Origin: a virus
Lineage: Duplodnaviria > Heunggongvirae > Uroviricota > Caudoviricetes
Virus record (IMG/VR): IMGVR_UViG_2541047747_000001
Reading direction: 5' to 3' (one strand)
Length of the DNA: 46,204 nt
Shown here: in pieces, positions 8,486-29,807 of the stretch
Layout of the letters: each line of letters begins with the position of its first letter
Numbering within the stretch: the stretch's first letter is position 1
The notes under the pieces: generated by a model
What the model was told of the DNA's origin: nothing
Seen by the model: the letters and a program-made list of their open reading frames with translations, nothing else
The model's database searches: none
Position numbers and translations under genes: made by a program

Positions 8486-9069
8486 TGGCATTCAGAATGA
8501 GTGAACAAGCACGGACCATAAAAATTTATAATCTGCTGGCCGGAACTAATGAATTTATTGGTGAAGGTGACGCATATATTCCGCCTCATACAGGTCTGCC
8601 AGCAAACAGTACCGATATTGCACCACCAGATATTCCTGCTGGCTTTGTGGCTGTTTTCAACAGTGATGAGGCATCGTGGCATCTCGTTGAAGACCATCGG
8701 GGTAAAACGGTTTATGACGTAGCGTCAGGGGACGAGTTATTTATTTCTGAACTCGGTCCGTTACCGGAAAATGTTACCTGGTTATCGCCGGAAGGGGAGT
8801 TTCAGAAGTGGAACGGCACAGCCTGGGTGAAGGATACGGAAGCAGAAAAACTGTTCCGGATCCGGGAGGCGGAAGAAACAAAAAACAGCCTGATGCAGGT
8901 AGCCAGCGAGCATATTGCGCCGCTTCAGGATGCTGCAGATCTGGAAATTGCAACAGAGGAAGAAATCTCGTTGCTGGAAGCATGGAAAAAGTATCGGGTA
9001 TTGCTGAACCGTGTTGATACGTCAACTGCACCTGATATTGAGTGGCCTACGAACCCTGTCAGGGAGTAA
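8485..9069 (+). CDS. tfa: tail fibre assembly protein Tfa
   Basis: 194 aa, [42 protein letters not shown] nearly identical to lambda Tfa as recalled; start overlaps stf stop (TAATG). Confidence 0.9.
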
Positions 9070-16444: not shown

Positions 16445-17101
16445 TCAGAAAATATCCCACCTGGCATCAACCACAACACCTACTATTTCGCAATCATTGT
16501 CCATTTCTATGATTGGATATTGTGGATTAAGGGGCTTTAGAAACGCCTTTCCCATGTCAGAAATATATTTTTTGAATGTTGCTTCATTGGTAGATTTTTT
16601 TCTGGCGATGACGTAACACCCTGAAAAAACTTCTTTATCTGGGTTGACAAGGATCGACATTCCTTCAGGAAATGTTATTCCTACGGGCGAAGTCATTGAG
16701 TCTCCGTGCACTTCCAGCCAGAACCCCCTCTCACCAGCGTATTTTACAGAATGCCTCCAATTATCCTGATCATACATGTTGTAGTCATCACCAGAAGTTG
16801 CGAATAATCCTGCCTGAACCCAGTTAATTACAGGGTAAGAGTGTGCTGTGTCTCTCTGTGGGCAGCTCTTAACATTATTTTCCCAATGCTTATCTTTTTC
16901 ATCTCCGTTCTGAAGCCACTGCGGTGAACACCGCAGTGCAGCTGCAACTTTAAAAAGGGTGTCACCGTTGAAACTTTTTGTAAGGCCTTGCTCGGCTTTA
17001 CTGATTGCAACTCTGGTGATCCCAGCTTTTTTAGCCAACGCATCTTGTGTTAACCCAGCTTTTTGCCGTGCGTTGATGAGACGTTCACCTAAAGACTTCA
17101 T
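16445..17101 (-). CDS. cI: cI-type prophage repressor (HTH plus LexA-like S24 autopeptidase domain)
   Basis: N-terminal HTH MKSLGERLINARQKAGLTQDALAKKAGIT and C-terminal S24 domain with GDSM serine motif; GGAG RBS before the ATG at 17101; the ORF-track extension to 17176 is rejected. Confidence 0.85.
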   Translation of the reverse strand: MKSLGERLINARQKAGLTQDALAKKAGITRVAISKAEQGLTKSFNGDTLFKVAAALRCSPQWLQNGDEKDKHWENNVKSCPQRDTAHSYPVINWVQAGLFATSGDDYNMYDQDNWRHSVKYAGERGFWLEVHGDSMTSPVGITFPEGMSILVNPDKEVFSGCYVIARKKSTNEATFKKYISDMGKAFLKPLNPQYPIIEMDNDCEIVGVVVDARWDIF

Positions 17102-17123
17102 TTTTCTTCTCCTCTCATGGCTG

Positions 17124-17195
17124 TTGATACTAAAGTAACAGAATTTCTTGATACTTTGGATTCCTGTGGTTAACATCGTTGGATAACAAAGTATC
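17124..17195. promoter_or_regulatory. right operator-like repeat cluster (OR analogue) with candidate rightward promoter
   Basis: TTGATACTAAAGTAAC (17124-17139), TTGATACTTTGG (17148-17159), GGATAACAAAGTATC (17181-17195); -35 TTGATA, 17-bp spacer, -10 TAACAT at 17171-17176. Confidence 0.5.
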
Positions 17196-17899: not shown

Positions 17900-18613
17900 A
17901 TGGCAGTGAACACCGTAATTTTTAACGGCAAAGCATCCATGACCAGCCTTGAAATCGCAGAGTTGGTGGGCAGCCAACACAAAGATGTTAAGCGCAGCAT
18001 TGAAAGGCTCATGGATAAGGGGATTATTCGAAGTGCGCCAATGGCGAATTTCGAAATAATCAACAACTTAGGATTAAAACGAAATGTAGGTGCTTACATC
18101 TTCGAAGGCGAACAAGGTAAGCGCGACAGCATCATTGTCGTCGCACAGCTCTGTCCTGAATTCACAGCTCGCCTGGTAGATCGCTGGCGCGAACTGGAAG
18201 AACAGATCCGTAAGCCAATGAGCGAAATCGAAATGGTTGCCGCGATGGCTCTTGAAGCCGTTCGCCAACAGAAACGGATCACTCAGGTGGAAGAAAAAGT
18301 CAGCCACGTTGCTGAAACAGTCGAGCAAATTAAAAAGGGCACTATTCGTGAGGGCTATGCCGGATATCGCCAACTGAAAGCAAAAACCGGTTTGTCAGAT
18401 GATAAATGCCGCAATCTGGTGAACGCCTATCAAATTCCTACAGACACACATGAGTTCATGACGCCGGACGGATTGTTGTCACGTCGCGCAATTGTTGCTG
18501 TGGAACCGTTTATGGCTGCTTTTTATCGGGTTATGGAGGAAGCAGAACCGCGAGGGACTCGCTGGTATCACCCGAAAATGGGGTTATTTCAGGTTATTGG
18601 TTGGCAGCGATGA
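17900..18613 (+). CDS. Rha-family phage regulatory protein (antirepressor-like)
   Basis: Start at MAVNTVIF after an AAGGAG RBS; N-terminal Rha-like domain (FNGKASMTSLEIAELVGSQHKDVKRSIERL). Confidence 0.7.
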   Translation: MAVNTVIFNGKASMTSLEIAELVGSQHKDVKRSIERLMDKGIIRSAPMANFEIINNLGLKRNVGAYIFEGEQGKRDSIIVVAQLCPEFTARLVDRWRELEEQIRKPMSEIEMVAAMALEAVRQQKRITQVEEKVSHVAETVEQIKKGTIREGYAGYRQLKAKTGLSDDKCRNLVNAYQIPTDTHEFMTPDGLLSRRAIVAVEPFMAAFYRVMEEAEPRGTRWYHPKMGLFQVIGWQR

Positions 18614-18635
18614 AAAAAGCCGGGAGTAACCCGGC
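18613..18635 (-). terminator. rho-independent terminator oriented for minus-strand transcription
   Basis: On the minus strand: GCCGGG-ttact-CCCGGC followed by TTTTTT; no U-tract in the plus orientation. Confidence 0.55.
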
Positions 18636-18720
18636 TCACTCAACATCAATAACGGGGAGCTGTTTCGCATAAAACGGCTCCGAAACATCCAAGAACAGTT
18701 CTAAAGATATCAGCAGCTAT

Positions 18721-19383
18721 ATGATCATTTCAAGACCAAATATTGATTCTGCAATTTCGGGACGTTACACTGTCTCCGCACCTTATAAAGCGGGTGCCGG
18801 GGGTCGCAGCCCGGAATTGCATACGGCGATATACGACGCGCCAGCGTCTTTTTTATCGTCCGCGCTCACGCACGCCAGAATTATGGTGGGCTGGGCAGGG
18901 GAGCCGAAAGGCTCGCCGGTTTCCGTATGCGCCGGTACTGCGAACCCTGTTCAGTCTGCCACCAGTGAGTTTCGCAGCTCCGGTGGTGGAAGTTATCCAT
19001 TGCATACGGAGGCTGCCATCATGGCTACAGTCCCAACTTCCCCATTCCTCAAAATTGAAGTTGTCAACGGCAAGGCCGTTATTTTCTCCCTGCATGTTGC
19101 CTGCCACTTTAAGCGCATGCACCAGAACATCGTCGACAAAATCGAGTATCTGAACTGCTCACGCGAGTTTTTTACCCGCAATTTCATACCGGGTACTTAT
19201 CACATCTACGGTGACTCCCTGCGTGGTTATTACATCACCCTTGATGGTCTGATGATGCTTCAGCTTGGGTTAAGTCTGCGCACAATGCGGTACTACGAGA
19301 GCTGTATTGAAGCATTCCATGAGGCTGAAACCGTCCAGGGTCACTCCGCGTTCCGTCGTAATCAACGGGAGGTGCACCTATGA
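18721..19383 (+). CDS. Rha-family protein with about 100-aa N-terminal extension (or structured leader plus Rha gene starting near 19021)
   Basis: Rha-like core FLKIEVVNGKAVIFSLHVACHFKRMHQNIVDKIEYL; N-terminal region contains a conserved 61-nt block and an in-frame terminator-like hairpin (18835-18854). Confidence 0.6.
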   Translation: MIISRPNIDSAISGRYTVSAPYKAGAGGRSPELHTAIYDAPASFLSSALTHARIMVGWAGEPKGSPVSVCAGTANPVQSATSEFRSSGGGSYPLHTEAAIMATVPTSPFLKIEVVNGKAVIFSLHVACHFKRMHQNIVDKIEYLNCSREFFTRNFIPGTYHIYGDSLRGYYITLDGLMMLQLGLSLRTMRYYESCIEAFHEAETVQGHSAFRRNQREVHL

Positions 19384-20231
19384 TCCGCCACCAGCATATT
19401 GATTCTGCAATTTCGGGACGTTACACTGTCTCTGCACCTTATAAAGCGGGTGCCGGGCGTGGAAACCCGAAATTCAATATAGAGCACAACCGCGCTCATG
19501 CGGTTTTTTCGTGTCATGAGCATCGTTACGCCCAAATTATGGTGGGGCGTGCAGGGCCAACTTCGGTTGGGCCGGGTTCTATGTTGACCGGTATTTCCAC
19601 CCCTGTACGTCTCACCACCTATATGGTCGTGGAAAGCCTTGGTGGTGAGTTCATTGAATTCAACATAGGGGCTGTCACCATGACTACTCTCCCAACCCAA
19701 TCTCACCCTGAAATCACGATTATCAATGGTCGCGTTGTCACCACATCTCTTGCAGTAGCTAATTACTTTACTAAACGGCATGAGCGGGTTTTAGATAGAA
19801 TTAGAAACCTCGAATGTTCCGCTGAATTTACTGAACACAATTTTGTGTTAAGTGAATACACCGACGCATCAGGCCGCAAACTACCTTGCTATCAAATCAC
19901 CCGCGATGGCTTCGCGTTCCTTGCCATGGGCTTCACTGGTAAACGTGCTGCCCGGTTCAAAGAGGCATACATCAACGCCTTTAACCTGATGGAGAAGAGT
20001 TTATCAGGTGCCGATACGTCTGATATGTCAGCTGTCGCACGAAACGCCAGAGGCGTATACCTGCATTTGCGTGAAATCCATCAAATCTGGACAAGCCAGC
20101 TTTATCCAATGCTTAAGGCCGTTGAATCTCCGCTGGCTAGCAAACTGTACGACCGTGTTGGTGATGCTGTTTTTGGCGCTGCACTTGTTGATTCCAGGCT
20201 GAATGGTTCTGACAAGGAGGTTCGCCCATGA
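19380..20231 (+). CDS. Rha-family protein, paralogue of 18721..19383, same N-terminal extension architecture
   Basis: Rha-like core ITIINGRVVTTSLAVANYFTKRHERVLDRIRNL...QITRDGFAFLAMGFTGKRAARFKEAYINAFN; ATG overlaps the upstream stop. Confidence 0.65.
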   Translation: MIRHQHIDSAISGRYTVSAPYKAGAGRGNPKFNIEHNRAHAVFSCHEHRYAQIMVGRAGPTSVGPGSMLTGISTPVRLTTYMVVESLGGEFIEFNIGAVTMTTLPTQSHPEITIINGRVVTTSLAVANYFTKRHERVLDRIRNLECSAEFTEHNFVLSEYTDASGRKLPCYQITRDGFAFLAMGFTGKRAARFKEAYINAFNLMEKSLSGADTSDMSAVARNARGVYLHLREIHQIWTSQLYPMLKAVESPLASKLYDRVGDAVFGAALVDSRLNGSDKEVRP

Positions 20232-20422
20232 TTAGTTACGAAATCATCATCTCCACTACGGAATACAGAAACGATGTATCAGTTCGCACGGATGTATCTG
20301 TCTGGCACCGTCGCTATAAATCCAGAAAAACAGCGGAACTGAAAGCGGCAGAGATGTGTGAAACCATCTCAATGAAAGGTAGCCCGGTTAAATACGTAAC
20401 TACGGCGGAGGTGCGTCCATGA
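20228..20422 (+). CDS. hypothetical small protein
   Basis: 64-aa ORF with start overlapping the upstream stop and stop overlapping the next start. Confidence 0.45.
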   Translation: MISYEIIISTTEYRNDVSVRTDVSVWHRRYKSRKTAELKAAEMCETISMKGSPVKYVTTAEVRP

Positions 20423-20643
20423 TCCGCCACATCGTTAATTCCCTGTATCACCGATACAACCGTTGCCCCCGAGTGGGGCAGTGGTTTACCACCAGCAACG
20501 GCCTCGTTCTGCGGGTTTGCCTGGTCAATGCAGAAAGTCAGAAGGTTGTCTGCCAGGTGCAGGGGCGTACTTATACCCTGAGTTACCCGCTGGTGGCGTT
20601 TCAGTCCGGAAAAATGTTTAAGCGTCTGGGAGGTGTCGTATGA
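20419..20643 (+). CDS. hypothetical small protein
   Basis: 74-aa ORF coupled on both sides (ATGA overlaps). Confidence 0.45.
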   Translation: MIRHIVNSLYHRYNRCPRVGQWFTTSNGLVLRVCLVNAESQKVVCQVQGRTYTLSYPLVAFQSGKMFKRLGGVV

Positions 20644-29117: not shown

Positions 29118-29193
29118 GGCCCTTTAGCTCAGTGGTGAGAGCGAGCGACTCATAATCGCCAGGTCGCTGGTTCAAATCCAGCAAGGGCCACCA
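29118..29193 (+). tRNA. tRNA with CAT anticodon (Ile2/lysidine type, ileX-like, or Met)
   Basis: Manual fold: 7-bp acceptor stem GGCCCTT/AAGGGCC, D-stem GCTC/GAGC, anticodon loop CTCATAA, T-loop TTCAAAT, encoded CCA. Confidence 0.85.
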
Positions 29194-29200
29194 TCACATA

Positions 29201-29277
29201 CCGCCATTAGCTCATCAGGAAAGAGCGCCAGCCTTCGAAGCTGGTTGCGCGGAGTTCGGGTCCCCGAAGGCGGTCCA
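29201..29277 (+). tRNA. tRNA-Arg (anticodon TCG)
   Basis: Manual fold: anticodon stem CCAGC/GCTGG, loop CTTCGAA, encoded CCA; one mismatch each in acceptor and T stems. Confidence 0.65.
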
Positions 29278-29290
29278 TTATCTGTATCCT

Positions 29291-29367
29291 GCGTTGTTAG
29301 CTCAGCCGGACAGAGCAATTGCCTTCTAAGCAATCGGTCACTGGTTCGAATCCAGTACAACGCGCCA
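29291..29367 (+). tRNA. tRNA-Arg (anticodon TCT)
   Basis: Manual fold: perfect acceptor stem GCGTTGT/ACAACGC, anticodon loop CTTCTAA, T-loop TTCGAAT, encoded CCA. Confidence 0.85.
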
Positions 29368-29407: not shown

Positions 29408-29606
29408 AATGTCTCACAATTCAGGCGGTTGACTGTTGTCTGGTTTGCGGGGAGTTTGTTAAAAGAAACTGGCATGGTGAATCCCCCTGTGCGGAGGGGC
29501 AATCAGCGAGTAGGTATATGGGATAATCGCGGATTCAGGTGCTGGTACTGAATTCACCGGGAGGCACCCGGCACCATGCAGTTGACTGAAACCATGTATA
29601 CTCTCA

Positions 29607-29636
29607 GGCCCCACGCACATGTGTTGGGGCCTTTTT
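29607..29636 (+). terminator. rho-independent terminator upstream of the lysis genes
   Basis: GGCCCCA...TGGGGCC stem followed by TTTTT; an oppositely oriented hairpin with A8 follows at about 29641-29670. Confidence 0.55.
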
Positions 29637-29807
29637 ACATGCAAAAAAAAGCCCGCATATGGATACGGGCGGCAAGGAACAAAAAACGTGAAGTGATCTA
29701 TTCAGCCAGTGGATAATACCCTGACGTTACCATATTGCGCAATCGCGCATTCTTTCTTTTTCGCTCCCCTTATAACTACGCCATCCGTTCGCTGCGGAGG
29801 TGAGGCT

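Follow-up and report, generated by a model that had tools for sequence, protein, structure and literature searches.

The stretch of DNA analysed here (hereafter the window), the 46,204 nucleotides (nt) of IMG/VR record IMGVR_UViG_2541047747_000001, is an Escherichia coli lambdoid prophage with 99.9% identity to a prophage in strain SCU-387. The leaders of its second and third Rha-type genes very probably form two tandem RNA-immunity cassettes of the P1 ImmI / P4 CI / Gifsy-1 isrK type, each gating the gene of a Rha/Bro-family regulator (a putative antirepressor). Each cassette consists, in order, of a promoter-like block, a 77-nt IsrK RNA with its terminator, a gap of about 25 nt, an 88-nt C4 RNA, and the Shine-Dalgarno sequence and ATG of the Rha open reading frame (ORF). 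The finding goes beyond chance because both leaders give full-length, above-threshold matches to two Rfam families and because 200 modules at 160 IMG/VR loci are built in the same way. An original prediction, made ahead of any database search, had likened the region to both P1 c4-ant and P22 sar; the antisense control of the first kind is upheld by the Rfam C4 and isrK matches and by covariation, but the second analogy fails, because regulator and target share a strand here. Production of the Rha/Bro-type regulator is very likely decided by two small-RNA genes in each cassette, where annotation shows protein only: in RefSeq the leaders appear as an 'ash family protein' or as part of one long Rha coding sequence, and zero RNA genes are annotated in the stretch examined.

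IsrK and C4 RNAs of the two leaders

The Rfam gathering scores of isrK and C4 are exceeded in both leaders, over the full model and by a modest margin in the case of isrK. The c4-a1b1 motif (RF03163) reaches only 23.8 and 18.5 bits in the two leaders against a threshold of 46.7; these sub-threshold matches overlap the isrK start, and the same positions are covered by isrK. IsrK is regarded as the equivalent of seqA in P4 and of a1-b1 in P1. The RNA elements are as follows.

18740-18801, + strand: conserved block, copy 1 (putative PisrK-1, then 24 nt of the IsrK-1 5' end with hairpin 1)
18743-18748 and 18766-18771, + strand: putative PisrK-1 (-35 TTGATT, 17-nt spacer, -10 TACACT)
18778-18854, + strand: IsrK-1 small RNA (sRNA), Rfam RF01394, 57.0 bits (threshold 50), model positions 1-77 of 77
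18778-18797 and 18798-18813, + strand: hairpins 1 and 2 of IsrK-1
18835-18848, then U6 (to 18854), + strand: stem and tail of the IsrK-1 terminator, from the terminator scan
18879-18966, + strand: C4-1 antisense RNA, Rfam RF01695, 80.4 bits (threshold 45), model positions 1-87 of 87
18883-18885, + strand: conserved AUG near the 5' end of C4-1
19396-19457, + strand: conserved block, copy 2 (putative PisrK-2 and the 5' end of IsrK-2)
19399-19404 and 19422-19427, + strand: -35 and -10 of putative PisrK-2
19434-19510, + strand: IsrK-2 sRNA, Rfam RF01394, 61.6 bits (threshold 50), model positions 1-77 of 77
19488-19505, then U6, + strand: stem of the IsrK-2 terminator, from the terminator scan (hairpin and T tail 19488-19511)
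19535-19622, + strand: C4-2 antisense RNA, Rfam RF01695, 82.4 bits (threshold 45), model positions 1-87 of 87
19539-19541, + strand: conserved AUG near the 5' end of C4-2

The minimum free energy fold of C4 has a 17-bp outer stem around two inner hairpins and leaves unpaired the loop of hairpin 2 (element b') and the linker 3' of hairpin 2 (element a'). Compensatory changes accompany this fold in the related leaders described below: the outer stem is 99.8% paired and has four pairs in which both bases have changed, hairpin 1 shows such double changes in four of its five pairs, and hairpin 2 does not vary. An invariant CCACC tail 3' of the outer stem is compatible with processing of the mature RNA from a longer transcript. 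In P1 and P4, mature C4 is released from such a transcript by RNase P.

A terminator scan of the window returned 10 terminator-like sites, against 4.0 +/- 2.0 in shuffled sequence, and recovered in both leaders the T6 hairpins that had been predicted to lie at the same relative position with different stems. They are best interpreted as the 3' intrinsic terminators of the IsrK sRNAs, an assignment made from the terminator scan and the Rfam alignment only. The two stems fall in different alignment registers, and with two terminator types placed in this way the IsrK terminator has no single consensus structure.

The 5' end of each IsrK gene lies within a block of 62 nt (61 in the original prediction) with one mismatch between the copies at 18740-18801 and 19396-19457. 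Its left edge is sharp at 18740, the preceding 40 nt being only 30% identical between copies; to its right, identity falls to 85% over 40 nt, to 50-65% in the remaining leader and to 40-62% in the ORFs, so that the divergence of the flanks is as predicted, but the figure of 60-65% given for it was slightly high. The sequence TTGATT-17-TACACT within the block is read as a putative isrK promoter, and the match to the Rfam isrK model begins 6 nt past the end of its -10, at 18778. No LexA box (CTGT-N8-ACAG) was found when the conserved block was inspected by eye. The near-identity of the two copies is real but is not tied to this duplication, as had been supposed: across 91 unique leaders of every specificity type, most positions of the block reach a conservation of at least 95%, and the block appears to be a family-wide conserved promoter and IsrK 5' hairpin that is not peculiar to the window. 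A functionless trace of recent duplication or gene conversion, a proposal that concerns the block only and is compatible with RNA immunity elsewhere in the leaders, would agree with the sharp drop of identity on either side and with the recombination of cassettes attested by the assortment of a and b types, by mismatched sets and by a junction repeat (19368-19391 / 20407-20430). It is very unlikely in view of the conservation beyond this pair and of the contents of the block, namely -35 and -10 hexamers correctly spaced from the isrK 5' end and hairpin 1 of IsrK. A role of the block as a recombination hotspot may add to functional constraint and does not replace it.

Pairing code of loops and targets

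Both unpaired elements of each C4 have complementary targets on either side of it, the upstream copies (a1, b1) within IsrK and the downstream copies (a2, b2) extending to the ribosome-binding site of the Rha gene.

18804-18809, + strand: a1 of module 1, UCGCAG, loop of IsrK-1 hairpin 2
18819-18826, + strand: b1 of module 1, within IsrK-1, GCAUACGG
18921-18931, + strand: b' of C4-1, hairpin-2 loop, UUUCCGUAUGC
18938-18944, + strand: a' of C4-1, linker, CUGCGAA
18971-19012, + strand: downstream target region of C4-1
18971-18977, + strand: a2 of module 1, UUCGCAG, just 3' of C4-1
19002-19012, + strand: b2 of module 1, GCAUACGGAGG (also given as UGCAUACGGAG, 19001-19011), overlapping the Rha Shine-Dalgarno sequence GGAGG at 19008-19012
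19460-19465, + strand: a1 of module 2, GUGGAA, loop of IsrK-2 hairpin 2
19475-19482, + strand: b1 of module 2, within IsrK-2, CAAUAUAG, pairing via a G.U
19577-19587, + strand: b' of C4-2, UUCUAUGUUGA
19594-19600, + strand: a' of C4-2, linker, UUUCCAC
19629-19671, + strand: downstream target region of C4-2
19629-19635, + strand: a2 of module 2, GUGGAAA, just 3' of C4-2
19660-19670, + strand: b2 of module 2, UCAACAUAGGG, overlapping the Shine-Dalgarno sequence AGGGG at 19667-19671

The predicted duplexes of C4-1 have energies of -10.5 kcal/mol with a2 and -16.7 kcal/mol with b2, and those of C4-2 have energies of -9.1 and -12.1 kcal/mol, respectively. Cognate duplexes as a whole span -8.9 to -10.5 kcal/mol for a and -12.1 to -16.7 kcal/mol for b, against -2.9 to -7.9 kcal/mol for cross-module combinations. 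These energies were computed element by element, pairing of the whole inner C4 with its targets having unfolded the hairpins and given uninformative values. The two modules of the window differ in both the a and the b code, and each C4 should therefore control only its own gene.

Homologues were collected by two translated searches of IMG/VR with both leaders, which yielded 160 loci with 200 modules, whose 300-nt leaders take 89 different forms. About six a-types and about nine b-types were seen, b' and a' combine in at least 21 ways, and b1 is often a copy of b2 weakened by G.U pairs. Among 31 distinct leaders the cis helices together with a1-a' and b1-b' are 99.8% paired, versus 37-45% in controls with slid partners; both members have changed in four of the six a1-a' pairs and seven of the eight b1-b' pairs, and the covariation score is 0.437, versus 0.163 in shuffles (0 of 500 reach it). 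The a'-a2 pairing was tested on an ungapped sub-alignment (A2), since a 3-nt insertion shifts the register of the module-2-like rows in the full alignment (A1). Among the 22 leaders without the insertion, a'-a2 and b'-b2 are paired in 99.2% of cells, with both-side changes in 4 of 7 and 7 of 11 pairs and a covariation score of 0.646, versus 0.187 in shuffles; for module-2-type leaders the a2 pairing is given by the duplex calculation alone. The shuffle control overstates significance because the sequences are related, a bias that leaves unaffected the slid controls and the counts of different kinds of pair (at most four at any one position). All three partners, the C4 loop, the IsrK site and the downstream site, change together across specificity types.

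The a and b types assort, and the few sets that are mismatched look like recombination intermediates. In one of them (L133:549-850) a b1 of the UCAAUAUAG type accompanies b' and b2 of the UCACCAAAG type, and in another (L110:2403-2700) b' is GUUCUAUGUUGA and b2 is of the UCACCAAAG type; both sets probably represent decayed modules or intermediates of recombination. Between a2 and b2 (18986-19000 and 19642-19659) lies a small hairpin whose sequence varies by type with its pairing kept (GUGGAAGUUAUCCAU, GUGAAGGUAAUUCAC and GAGUUCUUUGAAUUC in alignments A1 and A2).

A purely cis-acting attenuator in each leader, switching between alternative terminator and antiterminator folds with no trans-acting RNA or specificity code, is unlikely. 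Although a terminator does lie between promoter and gene, and a1/b1 can pair with a'/b' in cis as in the translationally silent 'structure A' of Gifsy-1 (PMC4825925), each target is present twice (a1/b1 and a2/b2) with both copies covarying with the C4 loops, and in the relatives that have been studied IsrK, c4 and CI are known to act in trans. Moreover, only one of 22 module pairs within arrays is identical in a' and b' together, as expected if cross-talk in trans matters.

The open leader frame, related systems and a proposed mechanism

Both cassettes are embedded in long ORFs that run in phase into the Rha genes.

18721-19383, + strand: module 1 long ORF, 220 amino acids (aa), 'ash family protein' in RefSeq, containing the promoter, IsrK-1, C4-1 and the nested Rha ORF
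19021-19383, + strand: nested Rha/Bro-family ORF 1, 120 aa, with its own Shine-Dalgarno sequence and ATG; Pfam Phage_pRha; PHROG 995, 821, 518 and 373
19380-20231, + strand: module 2 long ORF, 283 aa, its ATG overlapping the stop of ORF 1 (ATGA); Shine-Dalgarno sequence GGGAGGTG
19680-20231, + strand: nested Rha/Bro-family ORF 2, 183 aa, with its own Shine-Dalgarno sequence and ATG; Pfam Phage_pRha, E = 2.4e-30; PHROG 821, 995, 518, 373 and 63

The PHROG labels of the nested ORFs are transcriptional regulator, Rha-like, and anti-repressor. The nesting is of the eta/kil type, in which a long ORF starts upstream of an internal promoter and contains an in-phase ORF with its own ribosome-binding site. 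As the original prediction had it, N-terminal extensions of about 100 aa are present: about 100 codons precede the internal Shine-Dalgarno sequence and ATG at 19021 and 19680, and the Rha domain occupies Pfam residues 123-203 of the 220-aa and 121-206 of the 283-aa product. The extensions do not, however, amount to a conserved protein domain of the usual kind, codon-level conservation being absent. In the module-1 group the variable columns at the three codon positions number 48/49/47 in the leader versus 36/28/73 in the Rha ORF, and in the module-2 group 6/5/6 versus 16/16/41, as measured in groups with at least 80% ORF identity (an earlier pooling of non-homologous Rha ORFs had been a poor control). 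With no codon periodicity, the leader shows no ordinary protein-level constraint. Codon-level conservation of homologues in which hairpins were not maintained had been named beforehand as the result that would count against RNA control, and the homologues displayed the opposite.

The frame itself is nevertheless preserved. Of 116 unique leader variants, 115 have it open in the phase of the Rha ATG, and stop triplets are found at 0/12/13 sites by frame in the module-1 type and at 0/9/11 sites in the module-2 type, the off-frame sites being nearly all polymorphic. The AUG at the 5' end of C4 (18883 and 19539), 138 or 141 nt upstream of the Rha ATG, shares the phase of that ATG in each of the 116 leaders in which it could be placed. 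Among 30 distinct left contexts, most offer an in-phase ATG 13-19 nt upstream of the block, often with a strong Shine-Dalgarno sequence and an ATGA overlap with the gene before it. The leader frame thus appears to be kept open under selection, as for eta/kil of P4, in keeping with an earlier remark that the frames may be translated; translation through it is likely, and a conserved folded protein domain is not. The Pfam family PF10554 ('Ash protein family') may largely describe a translated RNA-immunity region comprising the isrK promoter, the IsrK terminator and C4.

That the leaders are instead the coding sequence of an N-terminal 'Ash' domain fused to Rha, with the RNA-family matches incidental, is highly improbable. 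The Pfam Phage_ASH matches of both extensions (E = 3e-16 and 1e-8), the PGAP name 'ash family protein', the nearly unbroken frame and the many in-phase ATGs with Shine-Dalgarno sequences could be cited for it, but the codon-position bias that is clear in the adjoining Rha ORF is absent from the leader, and the positions that vary are exactly those that covary as RNA-RNA pairs. Also within the frame are an intrinsic terminator of the + strand and the conserved promoter-like block, the Rfam matches are full-length and above threshold, and in relatives of Gifsy-1 the nucleotide sequence of orf45 is reported to be conserved, whereas its peptide is not (PMC12197685).

Of the systems with which the cassettes may be compared, Gifsy-1 has PisrK, a leaky IsrK terminator, the processed RNA STnc1160 and an antirepressor-like gene, anrP, coupled to a translated orf45 (Hershko-Shalev 2016, PMC4825925). 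There orf45 starts at +107 and its translation is required for anrP expression, compensatory mutations connect G28 with C162 and G31 with C159, and pairing of IsrK activates translation; Hfq binding and trans-activation of the read-through mRNA have been shown for Gifsy-1 IsrK only (PMC4825925). In Gifsy-1 lysogens, transcription of both IsrK and STnc1160 is high in every condition tested (10.1101/787010). The window resembles this system in being a lambdoid prophage with an isrK family member ending at an intrinsic terminator (leakiness being a feature of Gifsy-1), a C4 at the position of STnc1160, an AUG at about +106 opening a frame of about 45 codons across C4, and an antirepressor-like gene downstream. 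The pairs G28/C162 and G31/C159 map at or beside a1/a' of the window, a positional correspondence good to a few nt and made with no alignment. Unlike orf45, which has its own stop and is coupled to anrP, the 46-47 codons of the window run in phase into the Rha ORF; the window also differs in having two cassettes with different codes, and no output of the antQ type is known for its locus. The phage collection searched with the isrK consensus does not include Gifsy-1 itself.

The P4 immunity region, with seqA, the CI RNA (seqB) and seqC in eta/kil, is known from Sabbattini 1995 and Forti 1999 as cited in PMC10111431. According to that account, eta holds an internal constitutive promoter, seqA and CI, and Kil is a truncated, in-frame Eta (PMC10111431, citing Forti 1999); full-length Eta, as described there, requires an upstream promoter and translational coupling with the gene before it, and translation of Eta prevents the immunity-specific termination (PMC10111431). 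The Rfam C4 and isrK models detect relatives of CI and seqA (PMC10111431). Shared with the window are a long ORF of the Bro network containing an internal promoter, seqA (Rfam isrK) and the CI RNA (Rfam C4), a shorter product nested in frame, a start upstream of the internal promoter that, in module 2, appears to be coupled to the preceding gene, a frame kept open with no peptide constraint, and target sites on both sides of the RNA. P4, however, is a satellite whose RNA is its only immunity factor, whereas the window is a lambdoid prophage with a LexA-type CI repressor; the nested gene of the window has a Rha domain and is not Kil, the cassettes occur two or three in tandem, b2 lies directly over the Shine-Dalgarno sequence (more as in P1), and IsrK ends at an intrinsic terminator where P4 uses the Rho-dependent terminator timm.

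In P1 and P7 the ImmI operon has the order a1 b1 - c4 - a2 b2 - icd - ant (Citron & Schuster 1990, as cited in PMC2864571 and PMC12197685), and c4, the basis of heteroimmunity, blocks the ribosome-binding site of ant (PMC12197685). The C4 family, the order of elements on one strand, loop complementarity over the ribosome-binding site, specificity through compensatory changes of loop and target (P1 versus P7 heteroimmunity) and an antirepressor-type controlled gene are all common to P1/P7 and the window; in addition, the P1-like phage D6 matches the isrK consensus. Unlike P1, the window has no icd between C4 and the regulator, its controlled genes belong to the Rha/Bro family and not to P1 Ant, its upstream element is a discrete, terminated sRNA, and an open frame in phase with the gene runs through the entire leader.

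By analogy with these systems, the internal promoter would probably be constitutive in the lysogen, most transcripts would end at the IsrK terminator, and those that read through would be processed to stable C4. C4 would then pair in trans with a2/b2, closing the Rha ribosome-binding site (as in P1), provoking premature termination (as in P4), or both, and IsrK, carrying the a1/b1 copies of the target, would bind the a'/b' region and shift the balance to expression, as in Gifsy-1. The long in-phase ORF would act like eta of P4, ribosomes that enter upstream reading through promoter, terminator and C4 and so escaping the lock; for module 2 such ribosomes could enter via the ATGA overlap with ORF 1.

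Several points weigh against this account. All of its steps are transferred from P1, P4 and Gifsy-1, the locus itself being known from its sequence alone, and the three studied systems differ in output (a translation block in P1, Rho-dependent termination in P4, activation by IsrK in Gifsy-1), any of which may dominate here. The putative isrK promoter has 8 of 12 consensus matches, which places it below the promoter-scan threshold and leaves it absent from the scan list. The homologues were retrieved with these same leaders and are fairly close (at least 73% identity), a sampling that could under-represent frame-disrupted copies. The ATG of module 1 at 18721 has no Shine-Dalgarno sequence, so that eta-like translation is doubtful for that module. 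Finally, the Rha/Bro proteins are putative antirepressors of the CI-like repressor (16445-17176) by family name only.

Tandem arrays, genomic setting and the opposite strand

Tandem arrangement is not confined to the window: within the 3.3 kb fetched per locus, 28 of the 160 loci have two blocks and eight have three, with a usual spacing of 656 nt. Twenty-two within-array module pairs (16 distinct arrangements) include one pair that is the same in a' and b', two that share a' and two that share b'. Because codes within an array nearly always differ, the modules of one array, those of the window included, are normally predicted not to cross-react. One of the loci with three cassettes (L146:205-1803) has modules that all differ mutually in a' and b'. 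Of 19 distinct tandem junctions, 18 have an ATGA overlap that joins the stop of the upstream Rha gene to the start of the downstream long ORF; in the window this overlap lies at 19380-19383. The junction 19368-19391 is repeated at 20407-20430, both reading GGAGGTGC(A/G)(C/T)C(T/C)ATGATCCGCCAC, and the module-2 long ORF and a 74-aa ORF at 20419-20643 have in common a Shine-Dalgarno sequence and the first four codons (MIRH); the repeat looks like a boundary for insertion or shuffling of cassettes.

The arrays leave the known paradigm unchanged and extend the P1/P4/Gifsy-1 mechanism to lambdoid tandem arrays with differing module codes; a separate code for each module and coupling between modules are a modest new twist on a known system. 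No paper on tandem arrays or on the breadth of a/b codes in lambdoid prophages was found, which is weak evidence given the thin coverage of the older phage literature. A more speculative proposal, possible and rather doubtful, is that the arrays act as an ordered multi-lock: every Rha/Bro regulator would be under an RNA lock of its own, with a two-part code, the codes would have diversified against cross-reaction among co-resident prophages and satellites, and ATGA coupling would let an upstream opening bypass the downstream lock, yielding a long 'Ash-Rha' form and a built-in cascade. A corollary would be that 'Ash family protein' (PF10554) is mainly a translated RNA-immunity region of which the frame, but not the peptide, is selected. 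For work on non-cross-reacting RNA regulators, whether study or engineering, the leaders compared here offer a natural collection of matched loop-target triplets.

Among 5,426 complete E. coli genomes, about 90 have the tandem modules, with at least 80% of 18600-20300 present, and 1,316 gave matches to related modules or module parts, at up to six places per genome. Stx-converting phages are among the carriers of related modules, and putative antirepressor control in such phages bears on prophage induction. Downstream of the ORFs at 18721-19383 and 19380-20231 the window continues with two small ORFs and then replication genes. The features upstream are the following.

16445-17176, - strand: LexA-type, CI-like repressor (Pfam Peptidase_S24 and helix-turn-helix domains)
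between the CI-like repressor and the first Rha-type gene: two small ORFs
17900-18613: first Rha-type gene
18637-18617, then U6, - strand: stem of a minus-strand terminator (terminator scan), overlapping the stop codon of the first Rha gene
18697-18610, - strand: candidate minus-strand sRNA of about 88 nt, ending at that terminator
18733-18704, - strand: promoter-like site of the candidate (TTGAAA, 18-nt spacer, TGaTATCTT; 9 of 12 matches, TG present)

The minus-strand terminator had been noted in the original prediction just upstream of the block, and the scan agrees. The promoter-like site of the candidate sRNA stands back to back with the module-1 promoter, and the candidate folds with -31.1 kcal/mol (z = -3.1). 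Its promoter and terminator are kept in diverged variants of the L075/L081 type (-35, spacing and extended -10), in which the sequence of the inner hairpin differs. No Rfam family matched the candidate, the position of which recalls that of lambda oop RNA. An a'-like element in it, AUGCGAAAC, was considered as a partner of module-1 a2 and rejected, the 8-bp match being about what chance would give and the L075-type variant having no matching change.

In P22, as apparently in the window, a small RNA limits translation of an antirepressor, but sar is transcribed from the opposite strand across the start of ant, whereas the regulators of the window are same-strand RNAs that pair through loops and targets. 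Repression by a sar-type opposite-strand RNA lying across the Rha ribosome-binding site, the other analogy originally drawn, might look to the minus-strand promoter and terminator pair at 18733-18610; it is scarcely tenable, however, since that unit lies upstream of the block and overlaps neither Rha ribosome-binding site, the scan gave no promoter-like or terminator-like site on the minus strand within 18740-19700, and both Rfam families were matched on the + strand.

A related leader also occurs in a P4-like satellite context (L002, NZ_CM132940 3021918-3027162), where the order is integrase, 'ash family' leader, Icd-like gene, DUF4222 and primase; this leader sits before an Icd-like gene, as in P1, and not before a Rha gene. 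Elsewhere in the window, all on the + strand, the remaining Rfam matches (8828-9026, 29118-29364 and 29443-29642) are to IS009 (220 bits), three tRNA genes and STnc100 (139 bits).

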